Assembly (NCBI GenBank): GCA_001828545.1
Contig: MHYW01000136.1
Location: forward strand, 1-25,840
DNA from: Planctomycetes bacterium RIFCSPHIGHO2_12_FULL_52_36
Lineage (GTDB): Bacteria; Planctomycetota; Brocadiia; Brocadiales; Bathyanammoxibiaceae
Direction of reading: 5' to 3'
Length of the DNA stretch: 25,840 bases
Shown: in pieces, positions 7,566 to 15,351 of the stretch
Layout: every line of letters starts with the position of its first letter
Numbering within the stretch: the first letter of the stretch is position 1
Translations under genes and position numbers: made by a program
The notes under the pieces: generated by a model
Databases searched by the model: none
Seen by the model: only the letters and a program-made list of their open reading frames with translations
What the model was told of the DNA's origin: nothing

Positions 7566-8053
7566 TGCCTACTGCTTACTCTCTCAGGTGGTAGCTCCAC
7601 CTTGTCCCCCACCTTTACGTTGTGCCTCTCAAACCATCCCTCCAGCATCTCTAAGGCGTACCTCGCCTTTTCTTTAGAGTCATGACTACTAAGACTGAGT
7701 GGCTCCATGGACTCAATCTGGGTGATTGTGCCCTCAGTTGATATGAAGGCAATGGAAAGGGGTATATGGGTATTCTTCATCCAGAAGGTGAGATAATCCT
7801 CCTCTGGGAACACAAAGAGCATACCGTAGTCTTCGGGGAGCTGTCGCCTGTACATCAGTCCTAGACCACGTTCACTGGGTGTACGGGCCAATTCCACGGT
7901 AATCACCTTCCCAGCAACTTTTAACTGGTAAAGCTCCTTTCCCTCCGTTGTGGACCTGGTGTAATAAAAGGCCACAACCAATAGTATGAATAGAAGACAT
8001 ACAACTGCGTATGGTAATCTGCCCGAGGCGGATTTTCTGTCACTCCTGGACAT
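7562..8053 (-). CDS. DUF192 family protein, membrane-anchored
   Basis: N-terminal TM, VELARTPSERGLGLMYR, GMLFVF, FWMKNTHIPLSIAFI, YALEM..GWF. Confidence 0.92.
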   Translation of the reverse strand: MSRSDRKSASGRLPYAVVCLLFILLVVAFYYTRSTTEGKELYQLKVAGKVITVELARTPSERGLGLMYRRQLPEDYGMLFVFPEEDYLTFWMKNTHIPLSIAFISTEGTITQIESMEPLSLSSHDSKEKARYALEMLEGWFERHNVKVGDKVELPPERVSSRQ

Positions 8054-8684
8054 TGTCTTTCAGAAGCCCATTGCAACGTTTACAGAAGGTGTCCGGTTTC
8101 CTATCCGTATCCGGAAGACTATTAGAAAAGAACATGACGCAGTGGGGGTCGGGACAGTGTCTCATGCCCCAGACGTGGCCAAGCTCATGTACGGCCTCCT
8201 TGACCGTCCTCTCCATTAATAAGGTAGTATCTGCTGGTTTTCCGTAGAATTCCTGCCTGAGGCGGCAGAGGGATATGATAGCCATGTCTTTAGTCGGGAG
8301 GGCCTCCCCAAAGACAAAATTGAGGTTAGGGACAAAGAGGTCTACCTCCGTTACCGCCAGGAGTAGGGGCAGGGTTACCCTGCCCCTACCAATACGGGGT
8401 CTGGTCGTCTCCAGGCCCTGCAGGACCCTCGTGGAATTGTATTGGTTGCGCCCCTGGTCAAAGGCCGCCTTTGAAATCTCTACTGGTTCCCCTATCTCAG
8501 CGGCCACCCCTAACTTGTCTCTCAGGGACTGAGCCAGTTCCTTTAGAAGACCTTTCTCCACCTTACCTACAGGTACCAGGTACACTACCCTTGAATGTTG
8601 GGCCATGCAGGGGGTGTTAGTAGCGATGGCCAGGAATAGAAGGGACAAGACGTCCGCGGAGAAGGGGGAGCGGAGTAATCTCAT
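8040..8684 (-). CDS. amzA: Archaemetzincin (peptidase M54) zinc metalloprotease
   Basis: RNQYNS, VTEVDLFVPNLNFVFGEA, EAVHELGHVWGMRHC...CVMFFSNS...FCKRC. ATGA overlap with the nfi stop; an alternative start at MAQHS is possible. Confidence 0.92.
   Translation of the reverse strand: MRLLRSPFSADVLSLLFLAIATNTPCMAQHSRVVYLVPVGKVEKGLLKELAQSLRDKLGVAAEIGEPVEISKAAFDQGRNQYNSTRVLQGLETTRPRIGRGRVTLPLLLAVTEVDLFVPNLNFVFGEALPTKDMAIISLCRLRQEFYGKPADTTLLMERTVKEAVHELGHVWGMRHCPDPHCVMFFSNSLPDTDRKPDTFCKRCNGLLKDNVQE
8363..8389. repeat. GTAG-type REP-like palindrome, copy 4, inside the archaemetzincin CDS
   Basis: gtaggggcagggt-t-accctgcccctac is the exact reverse complement of copy 1 (661-687). It is 27 nt and read in frame as part of GRGRVTLPLL. 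Confidence 0.85.
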
Positions 8685-9379
8685 TTTATCGTGTATTTAC
8701 CCTCGGAAACGGACCTCAATTGACTGACCAGGTTATGGGCCTGACGCAGGGGTTCCGGGAGTCTGTAGCCCCTGCAACTCCTGAGGACTATCTTTATGGA
8801 AGAGGGCAAATTGATTCTGTGCCCGGGAGAGACGAAGACTGGCTTCACCCTGCTCCTAGTCCTTACTGCCGCCCCTACCCGCTTGCCTTTGTAGAGGAGG
8901 TAAGAATAGGAGCCTGCCTCAACGCCCACAGGGTCGTACCCCCCCACTAGTACAGACTTGGCACAGCCCACGGAGGGCCTATCCAGCAGGAGTCCCATAT
9001 GGCTGGCCAGGCCGAGGCCCCTGGGATGGGCAATACCCTGCCCGTCAAATAGCAGCACATCGGGTTTGGTCTTAAGGAGACTGAACGCCTTCAGGAGGGC
9101 TGGTGCCTCTCTAAAACTAAGGAGACCAGGGATGTATGGGAAACTGGCCTTACGCACGGCACTGGCCTTATCCAGGGGCTTCATGCCCTTAAAGTCAAAG
9201 ACTACTACCCCAGCGTATACCTGGTTGGTCCGCTTACTATAAGCCACGTCTGCCCCTGCTATGGTACGGGGCAAGGTGGTGCTACCGTCCGTGAGGATGA
9301 GGGATTTCCTCAGCCTATCCTGTATGTCTACCGCCTCCTGGTAGCCTACCCGCCACGGATGGAGTCTTTTAAATCTCAT
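8681..9379 (-). CDS. nfi: Endonuclease V (deoxyinosine 3' endonuclease)
   Basis: IAGADVAY, FPYIPGLLSFREAP, DGQGIAHPRGLGLASH, SVGCAKS, PVFVSPGH, YRLPEPLRQAH. Confidence 0.96.
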   Translation of the reverse strand: MRFKRLHPWRVGYQEAVDIQDRLRKSLILTDGSTTLPRTIAGADVAYSKRTNQVYAGVVVFDFKGMKPLDKASAVRKASFPYIPGLLSFREAPALLKAFSLLKTKPDVLLFDGQGIAHPRGLGLASHMGLLLDRPSVGCAKSVLVGGYDPVGVEAGSYSYLLYKGKRVGAAVRTRSRVKPVFVSPGHRINLPSSIKIVLRSCRGYRLPEPLRQAHNLVSQLRSVSEGKYTIK

Positions 9380-10115
9380 CCCCTGCCTGGAATTGTAGGG
9401 ACAGGGCTTTAGCCCTGTCCGAAATGGGCAGACCTGGAGAAACGGACAGACCTAGAGGTCTGTCCCTACTGCTGCTGTCTTTAGGTCCCTCCCTGGAGGC
9501 CAGGTACCTCAAGCTCTTCATTACCTTCTTGTAAGGGAAATTCTTCCCGGGGCAGGCCGTATCGTGGACGTCCTTATGCAAAACAATAGAGGACCGGGGG
9601 ATATCGTACCTTTGCGATAAGTAACTGATAATGTTTATCAAGGACTTAATCTGTCGCCTGGTGGGTTTGTCCCCATTCTCAAAGTTCCCCACAAGGCAGA
9701 TACCTATACCCATGCGGTTGTACCGGGAGTCGCCGGCATGGGCACCGGAGAGCTGCTCCTTCCAGCGTTTACCTACCTCTATCTCACCGTCTCTGGAATC
9801 AGTCCCATTTCCGATGACGAAATGGTAGCCGAGACCATTTCCCCACCCCCTTACCTCCCGGTGGAAGGTGTCAAAACGGGCCGCTGAGCCTTCATGGGTG
9901 GCACTGTGGTGAAGCACTATGTATCGCCAGTGGTTCTCAGGGGCCTCAGGTTTACATAGTGTTTCCAGATTGGGTGCCTTTTTCTTTAGCAACATCAAGG
10001 GCAGGCTTACGGCGAGGGCAAGGACAACCAGTGCCGGAATGAGGAGGAAAAGGGGTATCTTCCATACGTAGAAGGAAAATGCAAGGCTATTCTTAGTCTT
10101 CCAGAACTGCTTCAT
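9369..10115 (-). CDS. N-acetylmuramoyl-L-alanine amidase (Amidase_2/PGRP-like), N-terminal TM anchor
   Basis: WRYIVLHHSAT, GLGYHFVIGNG, GAHAG, IGICLVGNFE, LHKDVHDTACPG (Zn ligands His/His/Cys). Hydrophobic residues ~15-42. Confidence 0.92.
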   Translation of the reverse strand: MKQFWKTKNSLAFSFYVWKIPLFLLIPALVVLALAVSLPLMLLKKKAPNLETLCKPEAPENHWRYIVLHHSATHEGSAARFDTFHREVRGWGNGLGYHFVIGNGTDSRDGEIEVGKRWKEQLSGAHAGDSRYNRMGIGICLVGNFENGDKPTRRQIKSLINIISYLSQRYDIPRSSIVLHKDVHDTACPGKNFPYKKVMKSLRYLASREGPKDSSSRDRPLGLSVSPGLPISDRAKALSLQFQAGDEI

Positions 10116-10145
10116 TAAGAGGGACTATTTCTTGCCACCTGCAAA

Positions 10146-10174
10146 ATTATATAGAGGCAGGAAAGGACTGTCAA
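10146..10174 (-). promoter_or_regulatory. Sigma70 promoter (perfect consensus) for the amidase-nfi-amzA-DUF192 operon
   Basis: Minus strand TTGACA-gtcctttcctgcctcta(17)-TATAAT. Confidence 0.8.
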
Positions 10175-10196
10175 TGGGAAAAGAGGCCAGGGTTGT

Positions 10197-10225
10197 GTAG
10201 GGGCGACCCGGCGGGTCGCCCCTAC
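10197..10225. repeat. GTAG-type REP-like palindrome, copy 5
   Basis: gtaggggcgacccg-g-cgggtcgcccctac, perfect 14-bp arms, lying between the divergent promoters. Confidence 0.85.
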
Positions 10226-10246
10226 TAAACGGGCAAGCAATTATCC

Positions 10247-10274
10247 TTGACAGCCCTCCAGTTGCTAGTACAAT
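10247..10274 (+). promoter_or_regulatory. Sigma70 promoter for the precursor-rSAM-kinase-NTase operon
   Basis: TTGACA-N16-TACAAT, about 50 nt upstream of the GTG at 10324. Confidence 0.65.
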
Positions 10275-10323
10275 AACCTTAATTATTTATGTATGTATTT
10301 GGTCCGATAGAAGGAGGTCGCCA

Positions 10324-10503
10324 GTGTCCAAAGAACCTACCGATAACCTTGAAGAACAGAGGCAAAAGACCCGCCGCAGGCTCCTGAAGTTAGGTGCATA
10401 CAGCATCCCGATAATCACAACTCTGGTTGCGAGCCGTGAGGCCCTTGCTGTATGTGGCCCTGTACTGTGCCCGCCCAAACTCAAGCTAGCGTCAAGGTCC
10501 TGA
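10324..10503 (+). CDS. Putative RiPP precursor peptide with Tat-like leader (59 aa; not in the ORF track)
   Basis: SD AAGGAGG (10311-10317) 6 nt before GTG. Translation MSKEPTDNLEEQRQKTRRRLLKLGAYSIPIITTLVASREALAVCGPVLCPPKLKLASRS: TRRRLLK twin-Arg motif, hydrophobic stretch, ALA cleavage motif. Directly upstream of an RRE-bearing rSAM. Confidence 0.82.
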   Translation: MSKEPTDNLEEQRQKTRRRLLKLGAYSIPIITTLVASREALAVCGPVLCPPKLKLASRS

Positions 10504-10579
10504 GTCGTAGCCATGAGCCGAAGTCCTGGGGCCGCCTCAGGTGGATGAAGGGGTTACGAAGGAGCGGTGATAGATTACT

Positions 10580-12196
10580 ATGGTTAATGAGATTGACCCC
10601 GCAAAAGGCCACATCTTCCTGGTAAGAGGACCTGTCAATTCTGCCTTGTACGACCTAAAGAAGAGGGAGATCTATTCCGTAAACCCACTGGTGGCTAGCG
10701 CGCTGGGGGATGGAGCGGAAGGGGTTCAGTCTATGCCTTTAGCAGGTCTACAGGTAGATTCGTTCCGATCACTGCAGGCCTCTAAACCTTCGTCCATTAG
10801 TGGAGAGGCCCTCCAGGTGCTCAGGAGTTACTTGGCCATACATCCTGCACTTGGTCAGTATGCGGTGACAGGTGGTAAGGGGTTTCGGGAGGGAGGCGGC
10901 AGTAGCCCCTTTTCCTACCAAAAAGTCATAGGGGAGTATTGCAATACGTCCCTACGTAGACTTAATTGTATATGGCTGGAACTCACCCAAAGTTGCAACC
11001 TCTCCTGTGCCCACTGTTATGCGGAGGCGGGGATGAGTCGCCCGAAGGAGCTTTCCCTGGGACAGTGGAAGGAGATACTTGAGGAGGGTGCGCAACTGGG
11101 CGCAAAGGAGGTCCAGTTGACGGGAGGTGAACCCACCCTATGCCCCTGGCTCACTGAGCTTGTTGAACACGCAAAGTCTTGCCAGTACAGAGAGATAGAG
11201 GTCTTTACCAATGCCACCCGCCTTGAGGAAGGGTTGTTGCGGAAGTTGGCTACCTTAGGGGTGAAGGTGGCATTATCCATTTACTCCTACGACCCCGAGA
11301 CGCACGATGGGATTACCAGGAGTCCTGGGAGCTTTGGGCGGACAGTAGAGGGTATAAAGTCACTCCTGGACTACCAGATACCTGTGAGGGCAAACGTAAC
11401 CCTTATGAAGGAAAACCTCTCCCACTTTAAAGACACCAGAGAGTTCTTGAAGGGATTGGGTTTGAAGGAGATAGGGTACGATTATGTACGGCCTACTGGG
11501 AGGGGGAGGGCAGAGTCAACCCGTCTGGATGTAGACGTGGCGAAGAAGGCGCCGGTGCTGTACATGCCATCCTCGCCCGAGGGCATACGTGGATTTTGTG
11601 AGGATAAGTCTGCCTGGATTACCTGCTGGAGGGGTGAGATACTCATAGCCAGTGATGGGGCGGCGTACCCATGCATCTTTACCAGGAAGATGCCAGTAGG
11701 TAAATTCCCCGAGATGCGGCTGGAAGAGATTATACAAGGCCAAACCGTCCAAAGGCTGTGGCAGATAACCCTGGATGAGGTGGAGACCTGTAAGGACTGT
11801 GAACTCCGCTACGGGTGTTTTAACTGCAGTGCCCTGGCACTGACTACCACTGGTAAACTGCTGGCCAAGAACCCACACTGTCAGTATAACCCCTACACCG
11901 GGCTTATGGAGGGGCATGGAGAAAAAGGGATGAAAGAAAGGCCAAAGACACGGATAGACCTCATCAATGAGACTGTGGAAGATGAGGTAGTTATTTATGA
12001 CCCAAAGAACCATAATGTACACCACCTGAATCCTATGGCAGGCATTATCTGGGAGTTATTAGATGGAAATCATACCCCCAAGGAGATAGCGGAGGAGGTC
12101 ATCAGTGTACTGGAGACCGACCCCGTTCAAGTGGAAAGGGACGTTACCAAGACCATTGAGGAGTTCCAGAGGAAAGGCCTTCTGGAAGAGGCGTAG
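10580..12196 (+). CDS. Radical SAM/SPASM peptide maturase with C-terminal PqqD/RRE domain
   Basis: CNLSCAHC (CxxxCxxC), LTGGEP, FTNA. SPASM CWRG...DGAAYPC...CKDCELRYGCFNC...PHC. Residues 451-538 are PqqD-like (EDEVVIYDP....HHLNPMAGIIWELLDG..TPKEIA...DV..TIEEFQRKGLL). Confidence 0.93.
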   Translation: MVNEIDPAKGHIFLVRGPVNSALYDLKKREIYSVNPLVASALGDGAEGVQSMPLAGLQVDSFRSLQASKPSSISGEALQVLRSYLAIHPALGQYAVTGGKGFREGGGSSPFSYQKVIGEYCNTSLRRLNCIWLELTQSCNLSCAHCYAEAGMSRPKELSLGQWKEILEEGAQLGAKEVQLTGGEPTLCPWLTELVEHAKSCQYREIEVFTNATRLEEGLLRKLATLGVKVALSIYSYDPETHDGITRSPGSFGRTVEGIKSLLDYQIPVRANVTLMKENLSHFKDTREFLKGLGLKEIGYDYVRPTGRGRAESTRLDVDVAKKAPVLYMPSSPEGIRGFCEDKSAWITCWRGEILIASDGAAYPCIFTRKMPVGKFPEMRLEEIIQGQTVQRLWQITLDEVETCKDCELRYGCFNCSALALTTTGKLLAKNPHCQYNPYTGLMEGHGEKGMKERPKTRIDLINETVEDEVVIYDPKNHNVHHLNPMAGIIWELLDGNHTPKEIAEEVISVLETDPVQVERDVTKTIEEFQRKGLLEEA

Positions 12197-12198
12197 AG

Positions 12199-13062
12199 GT
12201 GAAGGCGGCGACCCCAGCACTATCCACACTCAATATAAAGGTACTCTCCCTCCCGATAGAGATAACCACAAACCACGAGTCTTTCCGAAGAGAATTCTGT
12301 GAGCTTACCTCAGCCCTGGCTACCCCTGCAAATGGAGAACCACCAGTGGTAAGGTTCCAGGTGATGAAGAAGAAGAGATGTTTGCAGATAGAGCAGGAGG
12401 GTCGCATTATTTACCGTTTAACGAGAGACTATCATTTATGCCCCTTCCTGATGGACGAGATAAGGGCAAGCTGTTATGGACACGTGAAGGATTACCTGCT
12501 AGTCCACGCCGGTGCCGTAGTAAAAAATGGTAGGGCTATCCTCTTACCAGGGAAGTCAGAGAGCGGAAAGACCACCCTTACGCTGGGGCTTACGAACCAC
12601 GGTTATAAATATCTTACTGATGAGGTGAGCGCTATCCACCATGAGACTACGGAGGTGGTGCCATTCCAGAGGCCCATTTACGTGTGGCGTTGGTCCAGGC
12701 CCCTCCGTCAAGAGGTCAGTAAGAGTTTCAAGACCTATCGTTACCGTGGCGAAGGGCAGAGGTGGCAATACATTGTGCCCCAGGATGGTGCAGTAATCCC
12801 CGGGGATGCCCGGTGTAAGGTGGATTGGATTATATTCCCCAAATATGTCCCTAAGAGTAAGGTAGTATTGAAACCCATTGGCGGCGCCAGGGCAGCCGTG
12901 GCCCTACTGCAAAGGTGTTGGAATGCCCAGCTCTTTCCAGATAGGGGTCTAAAGATACTCACAGGGCTTGTACGAAGGGCGCGGTGTTATACACTGGAGA
13001 TGGGAGACCTGGAAGAGGCCTGCAAATTGATAGAGTCAACATGTAGGGGCGAATCCGCCTGA
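12199..13062 (+). CDS. HPr-kinase-related serine kinase (PadeK/ThcoK-like P-loop kinase)
   Basis: LVHAGAV, Walker A GKSESGKTTL, GYKYLTDE, VPFQRPI. Lacks the N-terminal domain of true HprK. Confidence 0.85.
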   Translation: MKAATPALSTLNIKVLSLPIEITTNHESFRREFCELTSALATPANGEPPVVRFQVMKKKRCLQIEQEGRIIYRLTRDYHLCPFLMDEIRASCYGHVKDYLLVHAGAVVKNGRAILLPGKSESGKTTLTLGLTNHGYKYLTDEVSAIHHETTEVVPFQRPIYVWRWSRPLRQEVSKSFKTYRYRGEGQRWQYIVPQDGAVIPGDARCKVDWIIFPKYVPKSKVVLKPIGGARAAVALLQRCWNAQLFPDRGLKILTGLVRRARCYTLEMGDLEEACKLIESTCRGESA

Positions 13063-13262
13063 GACGGACTGAACTCCACATCCAGCGACACAGTCGCTGG
13101 ACTCCATATATTTGGAGTCCATTGACTGTGTCAATGGACAAAATCAGACACCTAACCGCCCACTACTTCCTATCCAGCGATCCGCCTGAGGCGGAGAGGC
13201 AATCTAGTCATGGTTGAGCGGGATTGCTTCAGTAGTGTAGGGTGCGTCTTAACGCACCTTAC
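13043..13262. repeat. Composite palindromic element between kinase and nucleotidyltransferase
   Basis: Half-REP gtaggggcgaa (13043); tccgcctgag[a/g]cgga at 13054-13068 and 13181-13195; nested TCCA..TGGA hairpins at 13081-13139; REP-like gtagggtgcgt-ctta-acgcaccttac at 13237-13262. Confidence 0.7.
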
Positions 13263-13290
13263 TACTCGGCCCACCTTAGACAGACAACCT

Positions 13291-14496
13291 ATGTCTATGA
13301 ACAATATCCAAAGAGAACCTGTCTCAGAATATCAGAGTGAGCTTTTGCAACTCGTATCTCTATGCTCAGCCTCCAGGGTACGTCAAGTTGCAAATCCGCC
13401 ATCTTTCAGGCGGGACGCACCCTACGATTGGAGAGGCATAATAAAGATGGCCAGGGGGGAGGGGCTATCTCTCTCGTTATACAAAAACTTGAAGGCCAGT
13501 AACGGCCTCCTGCCCCAGGAGTATCTGGAGGAGTTGAGGCAAGAATATTTCTTAACCCTGGCACAGAATAAGTATTATTTTAGAGAGTTGGTGCGATGTC
13601 TTAAGGCAATGGACGTGCCGGTCATACTGTTAAAGGGGGCGGCCCTGCTTCCTGCCGCCTATAATGACTTAGGGGCGAGGCCCCTTGGGGATTTTGACAT
13701 CTTAATCCACCGCAGAGACCTGGATAAGGTAACAGGACGCTTAGGGGACTTGGGGTATAAATCTCATGGGGTGTATGGTCCCCATATTAATACTGTTTCT
13801 TTTATAAGAGACGAGGAGACGGTCCTGCCCCTGGAGGTTCACTGGCATATTGAAAATGCCATGTTCCCAAATTTTGAGATGTTCAAGATAGAGAGGATGT
13901 GGCAGGCCGCCATTACTGTAAAGATAGAGGGCTATGAGGGACTTATCTTTGCCCCGCATCACCAACTCCTCCACCTCACCGTACATGCCCTGAGGCACCA
14001 CTACGATAGGCTCATCCTCCTGTGGGACATACACCAGGTAATTAACCACTACGGGGGGCGGTTGAACTGGAAGGAATTGGTGCAGGAGGCACTGGAGTTC
14101 CGTCTCTCCAGACCTTTATTCTACGGGCTTTATCTAACCAAACTCTTAATGCATACAGACGTACCACAACATGTTCTGGATAGACTCAGGCCCTTAAGCC
14201 TTGGTCTGGAGGAAAAAGCCTTCGTCTATTTTATCAATAGGGGTATCCGCATACCCGGTTTACAATACCTGGTATATTTTCCAATGAACCAGGGCGTGAT
14301 AAATAAGATAAGATTTCTCTGGCGGGCCTTCTTCCCCCCCAGGGATATACTAGCGGAGATGGAGGCCCTTGATGGTTCTGAGATAGGGATAGTCCATTAC
14401 CTGAGGTGCATGAGTTGGAGGATGCAGTGTGCATGGAGGCTTATTGGGGGGGGGTTATGGTTTTCTGGCAAAGGCCAGGAGGGAGGGGCTGATTAA
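13291..14496 (+). CDS. Uncharacterised nucleotidyltransferase (NTP_transf_5-like)
   Basis: VILLKGAAL, YNDLGARPLGDFDILI, LEVHWHI, LLHLTVHALRH, RLILLWDI. Start placed at ATG 13291 (or 13297) because the ORF-track extension from 13210 runs through repeat DNA. Confidence 0.88.
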   Translation: MSMNNIQREPVSEYQSELLQLVSLCSASRVRQVANPPSFRRDAPYDWRGIIKMARGEGLSLSLYKNLKASNGLLPQEYLEELRQEYFLTLAQNKYYFRELVRCLKAMDVPVILLKGAALLPAAYNDLGARPLGDFDILIHRRDLDKVTGRLGDLGYKSHGVYGPHINTVSFIRDEETVLPLEVHWHIENAMFPNFEMFKIERMWQAAITVKIEGYEGLIFAPHHQLLHLTVHALRHHYDRLILLWDIHQVINHYGGRLNWKELVQEALEFRLSRPLFYGLYLTKLLMHTDVPQHVLDRLRPLSLGLEEKAFVYFINRGIRIPGLQYLVYFPMNQGVINKIRFLWRAFFPPRDILAEMEALDGSEIGIVHYLRCMSWRMQCAWRLIGGGLWFSGKGQEGGAD

Positions 14497-15351
14497 CAGG
14501 TTTCCAATAGATAGATAATAGACTGCCTGGGCCAGGGGGTAGGCGGTGTTTCGCAACAGTACCTCGGCAGATTTCCCGGCAAAGTTTATAAGGGCGGGAA
14601 CGTTTGGATCAAGGGTGGAATTCTCTACCCGTATGTCCACAAAACCTGCCTCCTTGAGGAACATCCTCAGTGTCCCTGGAGAAAACATATACACGTGGAA
14701 GACGGTGGGGGCCGTCACCCTGAGACCCTCCGGGATGATGGAATTGGTGAGGTCAAAAAGGCGCTGGAGGTAGAGGTGGAAGTGGAGGTTGGACACCCTT
14801 AAGGCAATAAGCCCGCCCTTCTTTAGTACCCTAAAGACTTCCCTTAAGTCTCCCCATGGGTCGTACGCCTGGTCAAGGACGTTCCAGGAAGTAGCCACGC
14901 CAAATGAATTCTCAGGCAGTTTGGCATCCCTTAGTTCCCCCCTGTGGACCTCGAGCCTCAGGGTATCTCTGGCAAATTGGACGGCGGTGGAGGAGACGTC
15001 GGTCCCCACTCCCTGCCACCCCCTCTTCCTGGCCAGGTCAAGGAAGTAGCCCTTGCCACAGCCTACGTCCAGGAGACTACCGTCTGGGATGGTGGATTCA
15101 ATACGGGAGAGCATCTTTTCAAACAGTGGGTATCTGTACTCCCTCCAGAGTGCCTCCTCTTCCGGTTTAAAATACTCAAGGTCGTAAAGCCTCCTCTCCC
15201 TCTCCAGGGTAGGTTTGGGGTTTATATAAGCAAGGCCGCATTTCTTACATCGTACCAGCCAGGAGGTCTCGTGGATTGGAGAGATGACCACCTGGTTAAG
15301 GGCAACGTAGTCCTTGGAGTTACAAAAGTTACAAGGGGTCTTGACTAGCAT
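14455..15351 (-). CDS. Class I SAM-dependent methyltransferase with N-terminal Zn ribbon (paralog 2)
   Basis: CNFC...CKKCGLAYINP, LLDVGCGKGYF, WNVLDQAYDP, HVYMFS. Confidence 0.9.
   Translation of the reverse strand: MLVKTPCNFCNSKDYVALNQVVISPIHETSWLVRCKKCGLAYINPKPTLERERRLYDLEYFKPEEEALWREYRYPLFEKMLSRIESTIPDGSLLDVGCGKGYFLDLARKRGWQGVGTDVSSTAVQFARDTLRLEVHRGELRDAKLPENSFGVATSWNVLDQAYDPWGDLREVFRVLKKGGLIALRVSNLHFHLYLQRLFDLTNSIIPEGLRVTAPTVFHVYMFSPGTLRMFLKEAGFVDIRVENSTLDPNVPALINFAGKSAEVLLRNTAYPLAQAVYYLSIGNLLISPSLLAFARKP

Follow-up and report, generated by a model that had tools for sequence, protein, structure and literature searches.

The 25,840-nt stretch of DNA analysed here (contig MHYW01000136.1 of Planctomycetes bacterium RIFCSPHIGHO2_12_FULL_52_36; hereafter the window) carries a 59-codon open reading frame (ORF) that is absent from the annotation and stands first in a four-gene operon. 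That this ORF encodes the precursor of a peptide made on the ribosome and modified post-translationally (RiPP), the substrate of the radical SAM (rSAM) enzyme, kinase and nucleotidyltransferase (NTase) encoded behind it, is strongly supported. Our overall reading, which we favour with some reserve, is that the leader of this precursor is bifunctional, and would serve the peptide-modification operon both as the site bound by its RiPP recognition element (RRE) and as an export signal.

A hidden precursor gene heads a four-gene operon

The gene lies on the plus strand at 10324-10503, with a GTG start at 10324, a TGA stop at 10501-10503 and 59 sense codons. A first-pass annotation, made from the sequence of the window alone, had picked out this ORF, and its position, its start codon and the translation it quoted proved exact. 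It had also given the ORF a Shine-Dalgarno sequence and a promoter of its own, and both are there: GAAGGAGG at 10310-10317 (plus strand), six bases 5' of the GTG, and a sigma-70-like promoter at 10247-10274 (plus strand), in which TTGACA (from 10247) and TACAAT (ending at 10274) are 16 nt apart (11/12 matches). A GGAGG context also precedes the homologous peptide genes in loci L013, L014 and those of the f4 family, and the identical promoter sequence is found 5' of a PqqD gene in a syntenic locus of a congener (L015). The window promoter is faced by the divergent promoter of the upstream amidase gene, which matches at 12/12 positions.

The assignment as a gene draws on homologues and on the pattern of substitutions. 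When 33 leader codons were compared between the window and the congener G002, 16 were identical, 13 differed by synonymous changes only and 4 changed the amino acid. The ORF is under purifying, protein-level selection, and it is almost certainly a real precursor gene. A 75-aa ORF on the opposite strand (10287-10514, minus), the one competing long frame at this place, was considered as a gene and rejected: it is split in two in the orthologous locus L042, and the substitutions fit the plus frame.

The peptide can be divided into five parts, all encoded on the plus strand. An acidic, polar n-region (aa 1-15, 10324-10368) is followed by a twin-arginine consensus-like motif, T-R-R-R-L-L-K (aa 16-22, 10369-10389), and by an uncharged 15-residue stretch (aa 23-37, 10390-10434) that contains Y26-x-x-P29-x-I31, an RRE-binding motif of the type known from lasso peptides and the LPP family. 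Next come a c-region, R-E-A-L-A (aa 38-42, 10435-10449), in which a basic residue precedes A-x-A at the putative leader/core boundary, and a core peptide (aa 43-59, 10450-10500) with Cys44-Gly-Pro, Cys49-Pro-Pro, Lys52 and a C-terminal Ser59. The twin-arginine motif, the R-E-A-L-A segment and the 17-residue tail ending in serine that the first-pass annotation described were thus all found. Ten homologues of 56-63 aa are present in the protein collection, two of them with names that place them in Brocadiales or 'Hypogeohydataceae' metagenome-assembled genomes (MAGs). Residues 1-42, including T-R-R-x-L-L-K and Y-S-I-P-I-I-T-T, are almost invariant across 11 homologues; the last 14-18 residues are hypervariable, with only Lys52 and Ser59 invariant in the 11 closest homologues. 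Neither Pfam nor NCBIfam assigned a family to the peptide, to 13 homologues or to 10 members of the wider family; the scans gave only sub-threshold matches to twin-arginine translocation (Tat) signals, in two distant members.

Behind the promoter the peptide gene is followed by three co-directional genes. The first (10580-12196, plus strand) encodes a 538-aa rSAM/SPASM enzyme (PF04055, 9e-27; PF13186, 5e-7) with a C-terminal PqqD-type RRE (PF05402, 7e-14); the RRE occupies approximately aa 449-538 (bases 11924-12193), the PF05402 match covering aa 469-535. The second (12199-13062, plus strand) encodes a P-loop kinase similar to HprK-related kinase A (TIGR04352, E=1.2e-32, 113 bits, below the cut-off of 200), which shares 26% identity (E=2e-24) with a bona fide TIGR04352 member of locus L061. 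The third (13210-14496, plus strand) encodes an NTase of family PF14907 (NTP_transf_5; E=2.8e-47). The same gene order, peptide, rSAM-PqqD, HprK-like kinase, NTase, recurs in G002, where the rSAM enzyme is 72% identical to that of the window, in G021 from another family of the same order (58%), and on a metagenome contig (L042).

In a broader survey, genes for PqqD, an HprK-like kinase and a PF14907 NTase stood beside the peptide gene in 16 of the 19 loci examined. These 16 include three Brocadiales families, a Myxococcales MAG (L047) and the HPr-rel-A locus L061; in L047 the order is NTase, peptide, rSAM, PqqD, HprK-like kinase, inside a locus for Wzy and sugar modification. The exceptions are L043, which reaches 8 kb on one side, L045 (2.9 kb) and the contig of P0012 (4.9 kb), which ends just past the peptide gene. 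Seen from the enzymes, a peptide was detected in 11 of the 13 genomes of the class that have a close HprK orthologue. The RiPP-type precursor that the first-pass annotation had proposed is borne out: its leader is conserved, its core hypervariable, and its gene keeps its place beside those of an RRE-bearing rSAM enzyme, a kinase and an NTase.

The leader carries a lasso/LPP-type RRE-binding motif

The leader segment Y26-S-I-P29-I-I31 matches the motif [Y/W]xxPx[L/V/I/F/A]. If the core starts at Val43, the tyrosine, proline and isoleucine fall at -17, -14 and -12, the positions that these residues hold in actinobacterial lasso leaders. They lie at -16, -13 and -11 in LppA and at -15, -12 and -10 in PbaA (PMC13381572), and crystal structures and mutagenesis have shown that the motif is bound by lasso B1 proteins and by the LPP chaperone LppB (PMC13381572). 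This lasso/LPP-type YxxPx[ILV] motif was overlooked in the first-pass annotation; it lies in the h-region of the putative signal peptide and alone accounts for much of the conservation of that region. The best solved relatives of the window PqqD domain are the lasso RREs TbiB1 (E=1e-4) and TfuB1.

Co-folding the leader with the RRE had been named by the first-pass annotation as a check on its reading, and binding to the C-terminal PqqD domain was indeed predicted. The model of rSAM aa 445-538 with the peptide reached an ipSAE of 0.64, while none of three controls exceeded 0.00; 51 of 78 solved complexes and 2 of 108 mismatched pairs reach that mark, and with similar RRE-leader complexes already solved such a pass speaks for likeness and is not proof. 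The peptide residues in contact were 9, 12-13, 15-17 and 19-36. Docking of the leader on the PqqD/RRE domain, as modelled, is very probable.

The leader defines a family of small genes

A profile built from 13 leaders was searched against 1.84 billion cluster representatives (cut-off E up to 1e-3) and gave 102 further matches, mostly of 50-110 aa. Related short ORFs, which the first-pass annotation had suggested looking for upstream of rSAM homologues, do recur in front of orthologous enzyme genes. RRx[LF][LM][KR] is present in 111 of 112 family members. Statistics by position are for the 107 members with an N-terminal leader. Both arginines of the pair are present in 100% of these, with the caveat that the family profile itself weights RR. 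The position after the pair is R in 64% and K in 23%; counting from the first Arg of the pair, Leu is found at +3 in 91% and at +4 in 90%, K (80%) or R (16%) at +5 in 96%, Tyr (79%) or Trp (6%) at +9 in 85%, Pro at +12 in 98% and Ile or Val at +14 in 94%. That the twin arginines are never exchanged, although neighbouring basic positions swap R and K, stands against a requirement for charge alone. Median values are 18 aa for the length of the n-region, -2 for its net charge and 16 aa for the uncharged stretch; the first charged residue past the h-region is basic in 70/107. A-x-A is found in 87/107, ending 24-28 residues past the first Arg. RRxLLK, three residues and YxxPx[IV] together make a simple genome-mining signature for unannotated small genes.

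Several types of core follow this leader: short Ser-ending cores with Cys-x-Pro, as in the window; long Cys-x-Pro repeats, for example in the Myxococcales MAG; Cys-free cores that are acidic, then basic, and end in G-L-S; and passengers of ~190 aa. In L043 (1784-2119) and L045 (1088-1366) the leader belongs to a long Cys-x-Pro repeat peptide, with no PqqD, HprK-like or NTase gene within reach; either the enzymes for these two peptides are encoded elsewhere or the peptides are exported without modification.

Layout and partners of a putative export signal

The leader has the full layout of a signal peptide, from a polar n-region through RRxLLK and 15 uncharged residues to a basic residue and A-L-A. 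The Tat consensus is S/T-R-R-x-F-L-K with an A-x-A signal-peptidase site. The match to this consensus claimed in the first-pass annotation holds for T16-R-R-R-L-L-K22 with the exception of the consensus Phe, in whose place there is Leu. The c-region, S-R-E-A-L-A followed by V, supplies both the basic residue and the A-x-A.

The first-pass annotation had noted that the operon holds no dedicated protease or transporter. This was found to extend further: no lasso cyclase, B2 peptidase, S26 peptidase or ABC exporter was seen among the domains of the main ORFs of the window (~29 frames scanned), and no peptidase or exporter in the immediate flanks of the related cassettes L053 and L058. As for general export proteins, TatC is encoded in the window genome (G000), and TatA was found only in the congeners G002 and G003. 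LepB, of ~450-530 aa, is present in the congeners G001 and G002. Searches with TIGR02227, PF10502 and a LepB query found no signal peptidase I in G000 (77% complete) or G003 (94% complete, 10 contigs), which we treat as assembly gaps or divergence rather than absence; the model of the archaeal-type signal peptidase, TIGR02228, had no match in G000.

A natural control is offered by the CxxCxxCC proteins (PF03692, YkgJ-like) of related cassettes, whose leader-like C-terminal tails keep YSxPxIxT without the arginine pair (VRQR, VYKR). C-terminal tails cannot serve as N-terminal signals, and only the N-terminal copies of the leader keep RR, which favours a role in export. The tail itself may represent either an RRE-docking tag built into the protein or an in-frame peptide copy that has decayed. 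Such tails are found at L053:3611-4414, L052 ~8778-9600, L013:4456-5298 (G002) and in L054 and L057. In L015 (G003) a full peptide, with RR and ending in S-L-S, lies in the same frame as the CxxCxxCC gene.

Judged by its leader sequence, the peptide is probably exported by a general pathway. Tat export followed by signal-peptidase cleavage is plausible from the motifs only, and Tat specifically as the route is a tentative assignment.

Proposed chemistry of the core

The first-pass annotation had named Cys44 and Cys49 as candidate thioether donors. Cysteine as a likely target of the rSAM enzyme stands; the specific pair does not. Orthologous cores have from 1 to 3 Cys and 12 of 13 have at least one Cys-x-Pro unit, so it is the Cys-x-Pro unit, and not the Cys44/Cys49 pair, that is conserved. 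Cores with Cys-x-Pro were found in 5/5 loci with a window-type rSAM enzyme and Cys-free cores in 9/9 loci without rSAM; the loci in this comparison are kin and not independent, and the pattern extends over two phyla. A different rSAM enzyme, of 332 aa, is encoded in two loci, one of them a second cassette in the same genome (C137), and the cores of both are likewise Cys-free. The closest solved structure to the rSAM part is the thioether-forming SkfB, and all NCBIfam maturase models fell far below their cut-offs on the window rSAM. As Cys-x-Pro tracks the type of rSAM and SkfB is nearest, we read the Cys as its likely target. By analogy the product may be a Cys thioether formed by the rSAM/SPASM enzyme, for which we see even chances. 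The strict link of Cys-x-Pro cores to one rSAM/SPASM subfamily points to uncharacterised peptide chemistry.

The Ser that HprK-type kinases phosphorylate, often several times over, is the C-terminal one in lasso precursors and Ser3 in LPP cores; in pseudomycoidin the phosphate receives hexoses from a PF14907-type NTase (PMC8498205, PMC13381572). By analogy with these, phosphorylation of Ser59 by the HprK-like kinase is reasonably likely. The invariant terminal Ser of window-type and G-L-S-type cores is consistent with phosphorylation at that position.

A proposed pathway and its alternatives

In the pathway that we propose, Y26-x-x-P29-x-I31 and its flanks would dock as a strand on the PqqD/RRE domain, as lasso and LPP leaders do. 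The rSAM/SPASM enzyme would then modify the Cys-x-Pro units of the bound 17-aa core, a thioether being the likeliest product, the kinase would phosphorylate a core Ser, most likely Ser59, and the NTase would decorate the phosphate. The stretch that docks would also be the hydrophobic core of a tripartite signal (RRxLLK, 15 uncharged residues, R-E-A-L-A). Release from the RRE would expose this signal, and the finished peptide would cross the membrane by a general pathway, Tat being the likeliest because the RR pair is immutable, before signal peptidase I cuts after Ala42. General export and signal peptidase I would in this way replace the SipW-like peptidase and the MsbA exporter of LPP clusters. 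Every chemical step we infer, and export and cleavage likewise.

A more elaborate form of this pathway is speculative. Here the RRE would clamp RRxLLK-YxxPxI and mask the signal, in the manner of TorD/DmsD, until the core is finished; Tat and LepB would act afterwards. The family would then be the missing substrates of HPr-rel-A- and SynChlorMet-type systems, and the phospho-Ser could be an anchor for the neighbouring glycan of sulfoquinovose and methyl sugars.

Several observations weigh against the bifunctional reading, some in general and others in favour of a particular alternative. Two runs labelled as metatranscriptomic contain a 363-nt contig (10429-10791), but both carry a flag as probable DNA and do not count as evidence of transcription. 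The score of the co-fold may stem from solved RRE-leader complexes memorised by the model. In the wider family a C-terminal Ser is present in only 26 of 111 members, and some sub-types lack A-x-A (for example EEAYSGG and TAEARRRRRR).

The alternative that survives best, which we nevertheless think unlikely, is that the leader serves enzyme recognition only. RRxLLK and YxxPxI would form one rigid surface for the RRE, and perhaps for the kinase or NTase, the hydrophobic stretch would be a strand paired with the RRE sheet, and the peptide would stay in the cell or leave it through unlinked dedicated proteins. Pro at +12 fixes the spacing between RR and YxxP in 98% of the family, and the co-fold puts Arg17, within contacts at aa 15-17, and aa 19-22 on the RRE, so that RRxLLK could be a surface recognised by the enzymes and not a signal to a translocase. 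Lasso and LPP leaders, however, bind such RREs without an RR pair, a hydrophobic block or AxA (PMC13381572), and a recognition surface would not explain why the two arginines are never Lys while adjacent basic positions exchange freely, or why the CxxCxxCC tails keep YSxPxIxT and drop RR. The RR-leader is almost confined to loci with the PqqD/HprK/NTase trio and is not found on unrelated secreted proteins. Curated Tat profiles also fail on it: TIGR01409 (NCBIfam, E up to 10) and PF10518 (Pfam, E up to 1) did not match the leader or 13 homologues, and a six-frame search of the genome with TIGR01409 (E up to 10) returned six other sites, three over the cut-off, with the leader absent. Against these stands the complete architecture of a signal peptide, with an uncharged block of 15-16 residues, a charged c-region and AxA. 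Candidate processing enzymes for a peptide that is not exported in the general way would be TldD/PmbA, encoded divergently beside the second cassette, and an M54 metallopeptidase 1.6 kb upstream, but neither is conserved beside the cassette in other loci.

We consider it improbable that the leader is instead a signal of the Sec/SRP type or a signal anchor, in which RR merely gives charge to the n-region and the peptide crosses the membrane unfolded, or stays anchored in it with the 17-aa tail outside. The length of its h-region, 15 aa, fits the approximately 12-20 residues of a Tat signal, but the mean Kyte-Doolittle value is 1.51, whereas five TIGR01409 matches of this genome, three over the cut-off, have 0.57-1.16; such hydrophobicity would favour Sec or membrane retention. 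Leu takes the place of the consensus Phe in the precursor and in 91% of the family, and the negative Tat profiles count on the same side. Sec, on the other hand, has no need of an invariant RR, and no Lys was seen in its place in 107 sequences. Nor does the basic residue that follows the h-region in 70/107 suit it, this being a Sec-avoidance feature. The cargo of the bifunctional leader would moreover be cross-linked, phosphorylated and possibly glycosylated before export, and better suited to Tat. Known RiPPs with signal peptides, the bufferins and DAG-RiPPs, do use Sec or lipoprotein routes (PMC12452194, PMC13056109).

Very improbable, finally, is an ordinary small secreted protein or chance ORF that neighbours the enzymes without being their substrate: Pfam and NCBIfam do not recognise the peptide, and the wider-family members P0036 and P0033 lie on contigs without the enzymes, but synteny spans two phyla, conservation of the leader contrasts with a hypervariable core, the leader has an RRE-binding motif and passes the co-fold, and Cys-x-Pro tracks the rSAM enzyme.

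Relation to known systems

Among described systems the LPP family of Bacillota (Popov et al., Nat Commun 2026; PMC13381572) comes closest, and phosphorylated lasso peptides come next. Like the window operon, LPP clusters combine a PqqD-type RRE, an HprK-like kinase and an NTP transferase (uncharacterised in LPP) with a conserved leader that has a YxxPx[V/L/I] motif and with variable C-termini; their precursors range from tens to ~200 aa, they lie inside polysaccharide or glycan loci, and they have no lasso cyclase. The differences are several. LPP clusters have a SipW-like signal peptidase I and an MsbA-like exporter, whereas the window (25.8 kb) and the L053 and L058 flanks have neither. The LPP leader lacks RRxLLK, the hydrophobic block and AxA, and the window cassette adds an rSAM/SPASM enzyme fused to the RRE. 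In LPP cores it is Ser3 on which the kinase acts, while the conserved Ser of the window type is C-terminal, and the host belongs to the Brocadiales-group Planctomycetota, with related clusters in Myxococcales, rather than to Bacillota.

The kinase and RRE are also homologous to those of the NCBIfam HPr-rel-A system (TIGR04352 kinase and TIGR04353 PqqD-family peptide chaperone). In the bona fide HPr-rel-A locus L061 both score over their cut-offs (395 bits and 46 bits) and an RR-leader protein is encoded directly upstream; in contrast, the window kinase reaches 113 bits (cut-off 200) and the window RRE 28.9 bits (cut-off 35). The combination of rSAM/SPASM, PqqD and HprK-like proteins is shared with the SynChlorMet cassette (ScmC/D/E/F). 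NCBIfam scans of the leader peptides gave no precursor family for HPr-rel-A or SynChlorMet, and our literature search found no paper on either system.

Paeninodin (PadeK), ThcoK and pseudomycoidin (PsmK/PsmN) resemble the window operon in an HprK-type kinase acting on a C-terminal Ser, a PF14907-type NTase adding hexoses and a B1-type RRE reading YxxP (PMC8498205). A lasso-peptide cluster was nevertheless rejected: the window (~29 frames) encodes no asparagine-synthetase-like macrolactam cyclase and no B2 cysteine peptidase, and without them the product cannot be a lasso peptide. With bufferins and oxazolins (Sec signal; PMC12452194) and DAG-RiPPs (lipoprotein signal; PMC13056109) the window peptide would share the use of a signal peptide as leader, with housekeeping export and cleavage; those, however, use Sec or Lol-type signals and MNIO enzymes, whereas the window leader is of the twin-arginine type and contains an RRE motif. 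Sactipeptides and ranthipeptides (SkfB, AlbA, CteB) are similar in having an rSAM/SPASM maturase, an RRE and Cys-bearing cores, and differ in that the window RRE is C-terminal instead of N-terminal and that the Cys-x-Pro repeat cores do not resemble those known from either class. The literature search found no paper on a Tat-type RiPP leader, none on a combination of rSAM, RRE, kinase and NTase, and none describing an RRE motif within a twin-arginine-type signal; this design appears to be new.

If our reading is correct, the peptides are the substrates of a trio that is widespread and curated but uncharacterised (PqqD chaperone, HprK-related kinase A and PF14907 NTase), and pathways for phosphorylated peptides of the LPP type extend from Bacillota to Brocadiales-group Planctomycetota and a Myxococcales MAG. 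The design principle would be an RRE motif placed in a twin-arginine-type signal, with housekeeping export and cleavage in place of a dedicated protease and transporter. Should the route be Tat, this would be the first RiPP family exported by Tat, with at least 100 related peptide clusters.

Neighbouring genes, repeats and a second cassette

A glycan operon converges on the cassette from the right, encoding methyltransferases, GT2 and GT4 glycosyltransferases, a UDP-sulfoquinovose synthase and a second rSAM enzyme. To the left of the precursor gene are genes for an amidase, endonuclease V, an M54 peptidase, DUF192, a CofD-like/HAD fusion, AlaRS and RecA. The M54 (archaemetzincin-like) metallopeptidase gene (8040-8684, minus strand) belongs to this divergent housekeeping operon; its product may be considered a candidate processing enzyme.

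The second cassette of the same genome (C137:11350-11505, minus strand; L059 ~9300-9460), which has an orthologue at L016:3763-3921, encodes a 52-aa peptide with an RRRLLKL leader, W-x-x-P for Y-x-x-P, A-W-A and a Cys-free tail of 10 aa that ends in Gly. Genes for the different 332-aa rSAM/SPASM enzyme, a 92-aa ORF, a stand-alone PqqD, an HprK-like kinase, an NTase, Wza and Wzz follow 3' of it, and a TldD/PmbA gene lies divergently upstream.

In the congener G003, locus L015 (G003:C8:398000-409000) is syntenic with window 9369-15351 and has another cassette between the same amidase and methyltransferase genes, behind the same promoter. This cassette encodes a stand-alone PqqD, an HprK-like kinase, the CxxCxxCC protein with the in-frame peptide, a beta-propeller of 447 aa and an NTase; an rSAM gene and an upstream peptide gene are absent from it. 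One module seems to have been swapped for another at this locus. A precursor hidden between the genes of L015 was sought and rejected, the 49-aa and 57-aa frames there having no leader features; the peptide is in frame at the end of the CxxCxxCC gene. The L015 beta-propeller showed no homology to the beta-propeller beside P0036.

Two kinds of repeat lie near the precursor gene. A REP-like palindromic hairpin occupies 10197-10226 (no strand assigned), in the divergent intergenic region outside the precursor gene; the 29-nt hairpin at 10197 has 8 exact copies, and 38 with variable loops, in the 1.5-Mb genome, and assembler depth there is 261 compared with ~20 beside it (run X1). A shorter REP-like palindrome, CCGCCTSAGGCGG (13182-13194), has 210 copies in the 1.5-Mb genome. 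One copy lies in frame within the n-region of the G002 peptide (L013 ~8160-8180) and others in two further homologues, where the insertion adds three residues, N/G-P-P-Q-A-D replacing D-N-L. In the spacer between the HprK-like and NTase genes (13082-13174), contigs of DNA run X1 show alternative joints around a REP copy, including a 36-base skip and several inserted variants. This suggests strain-level variation in length, at the place where G002 has an extra CxxCxxCC gene.

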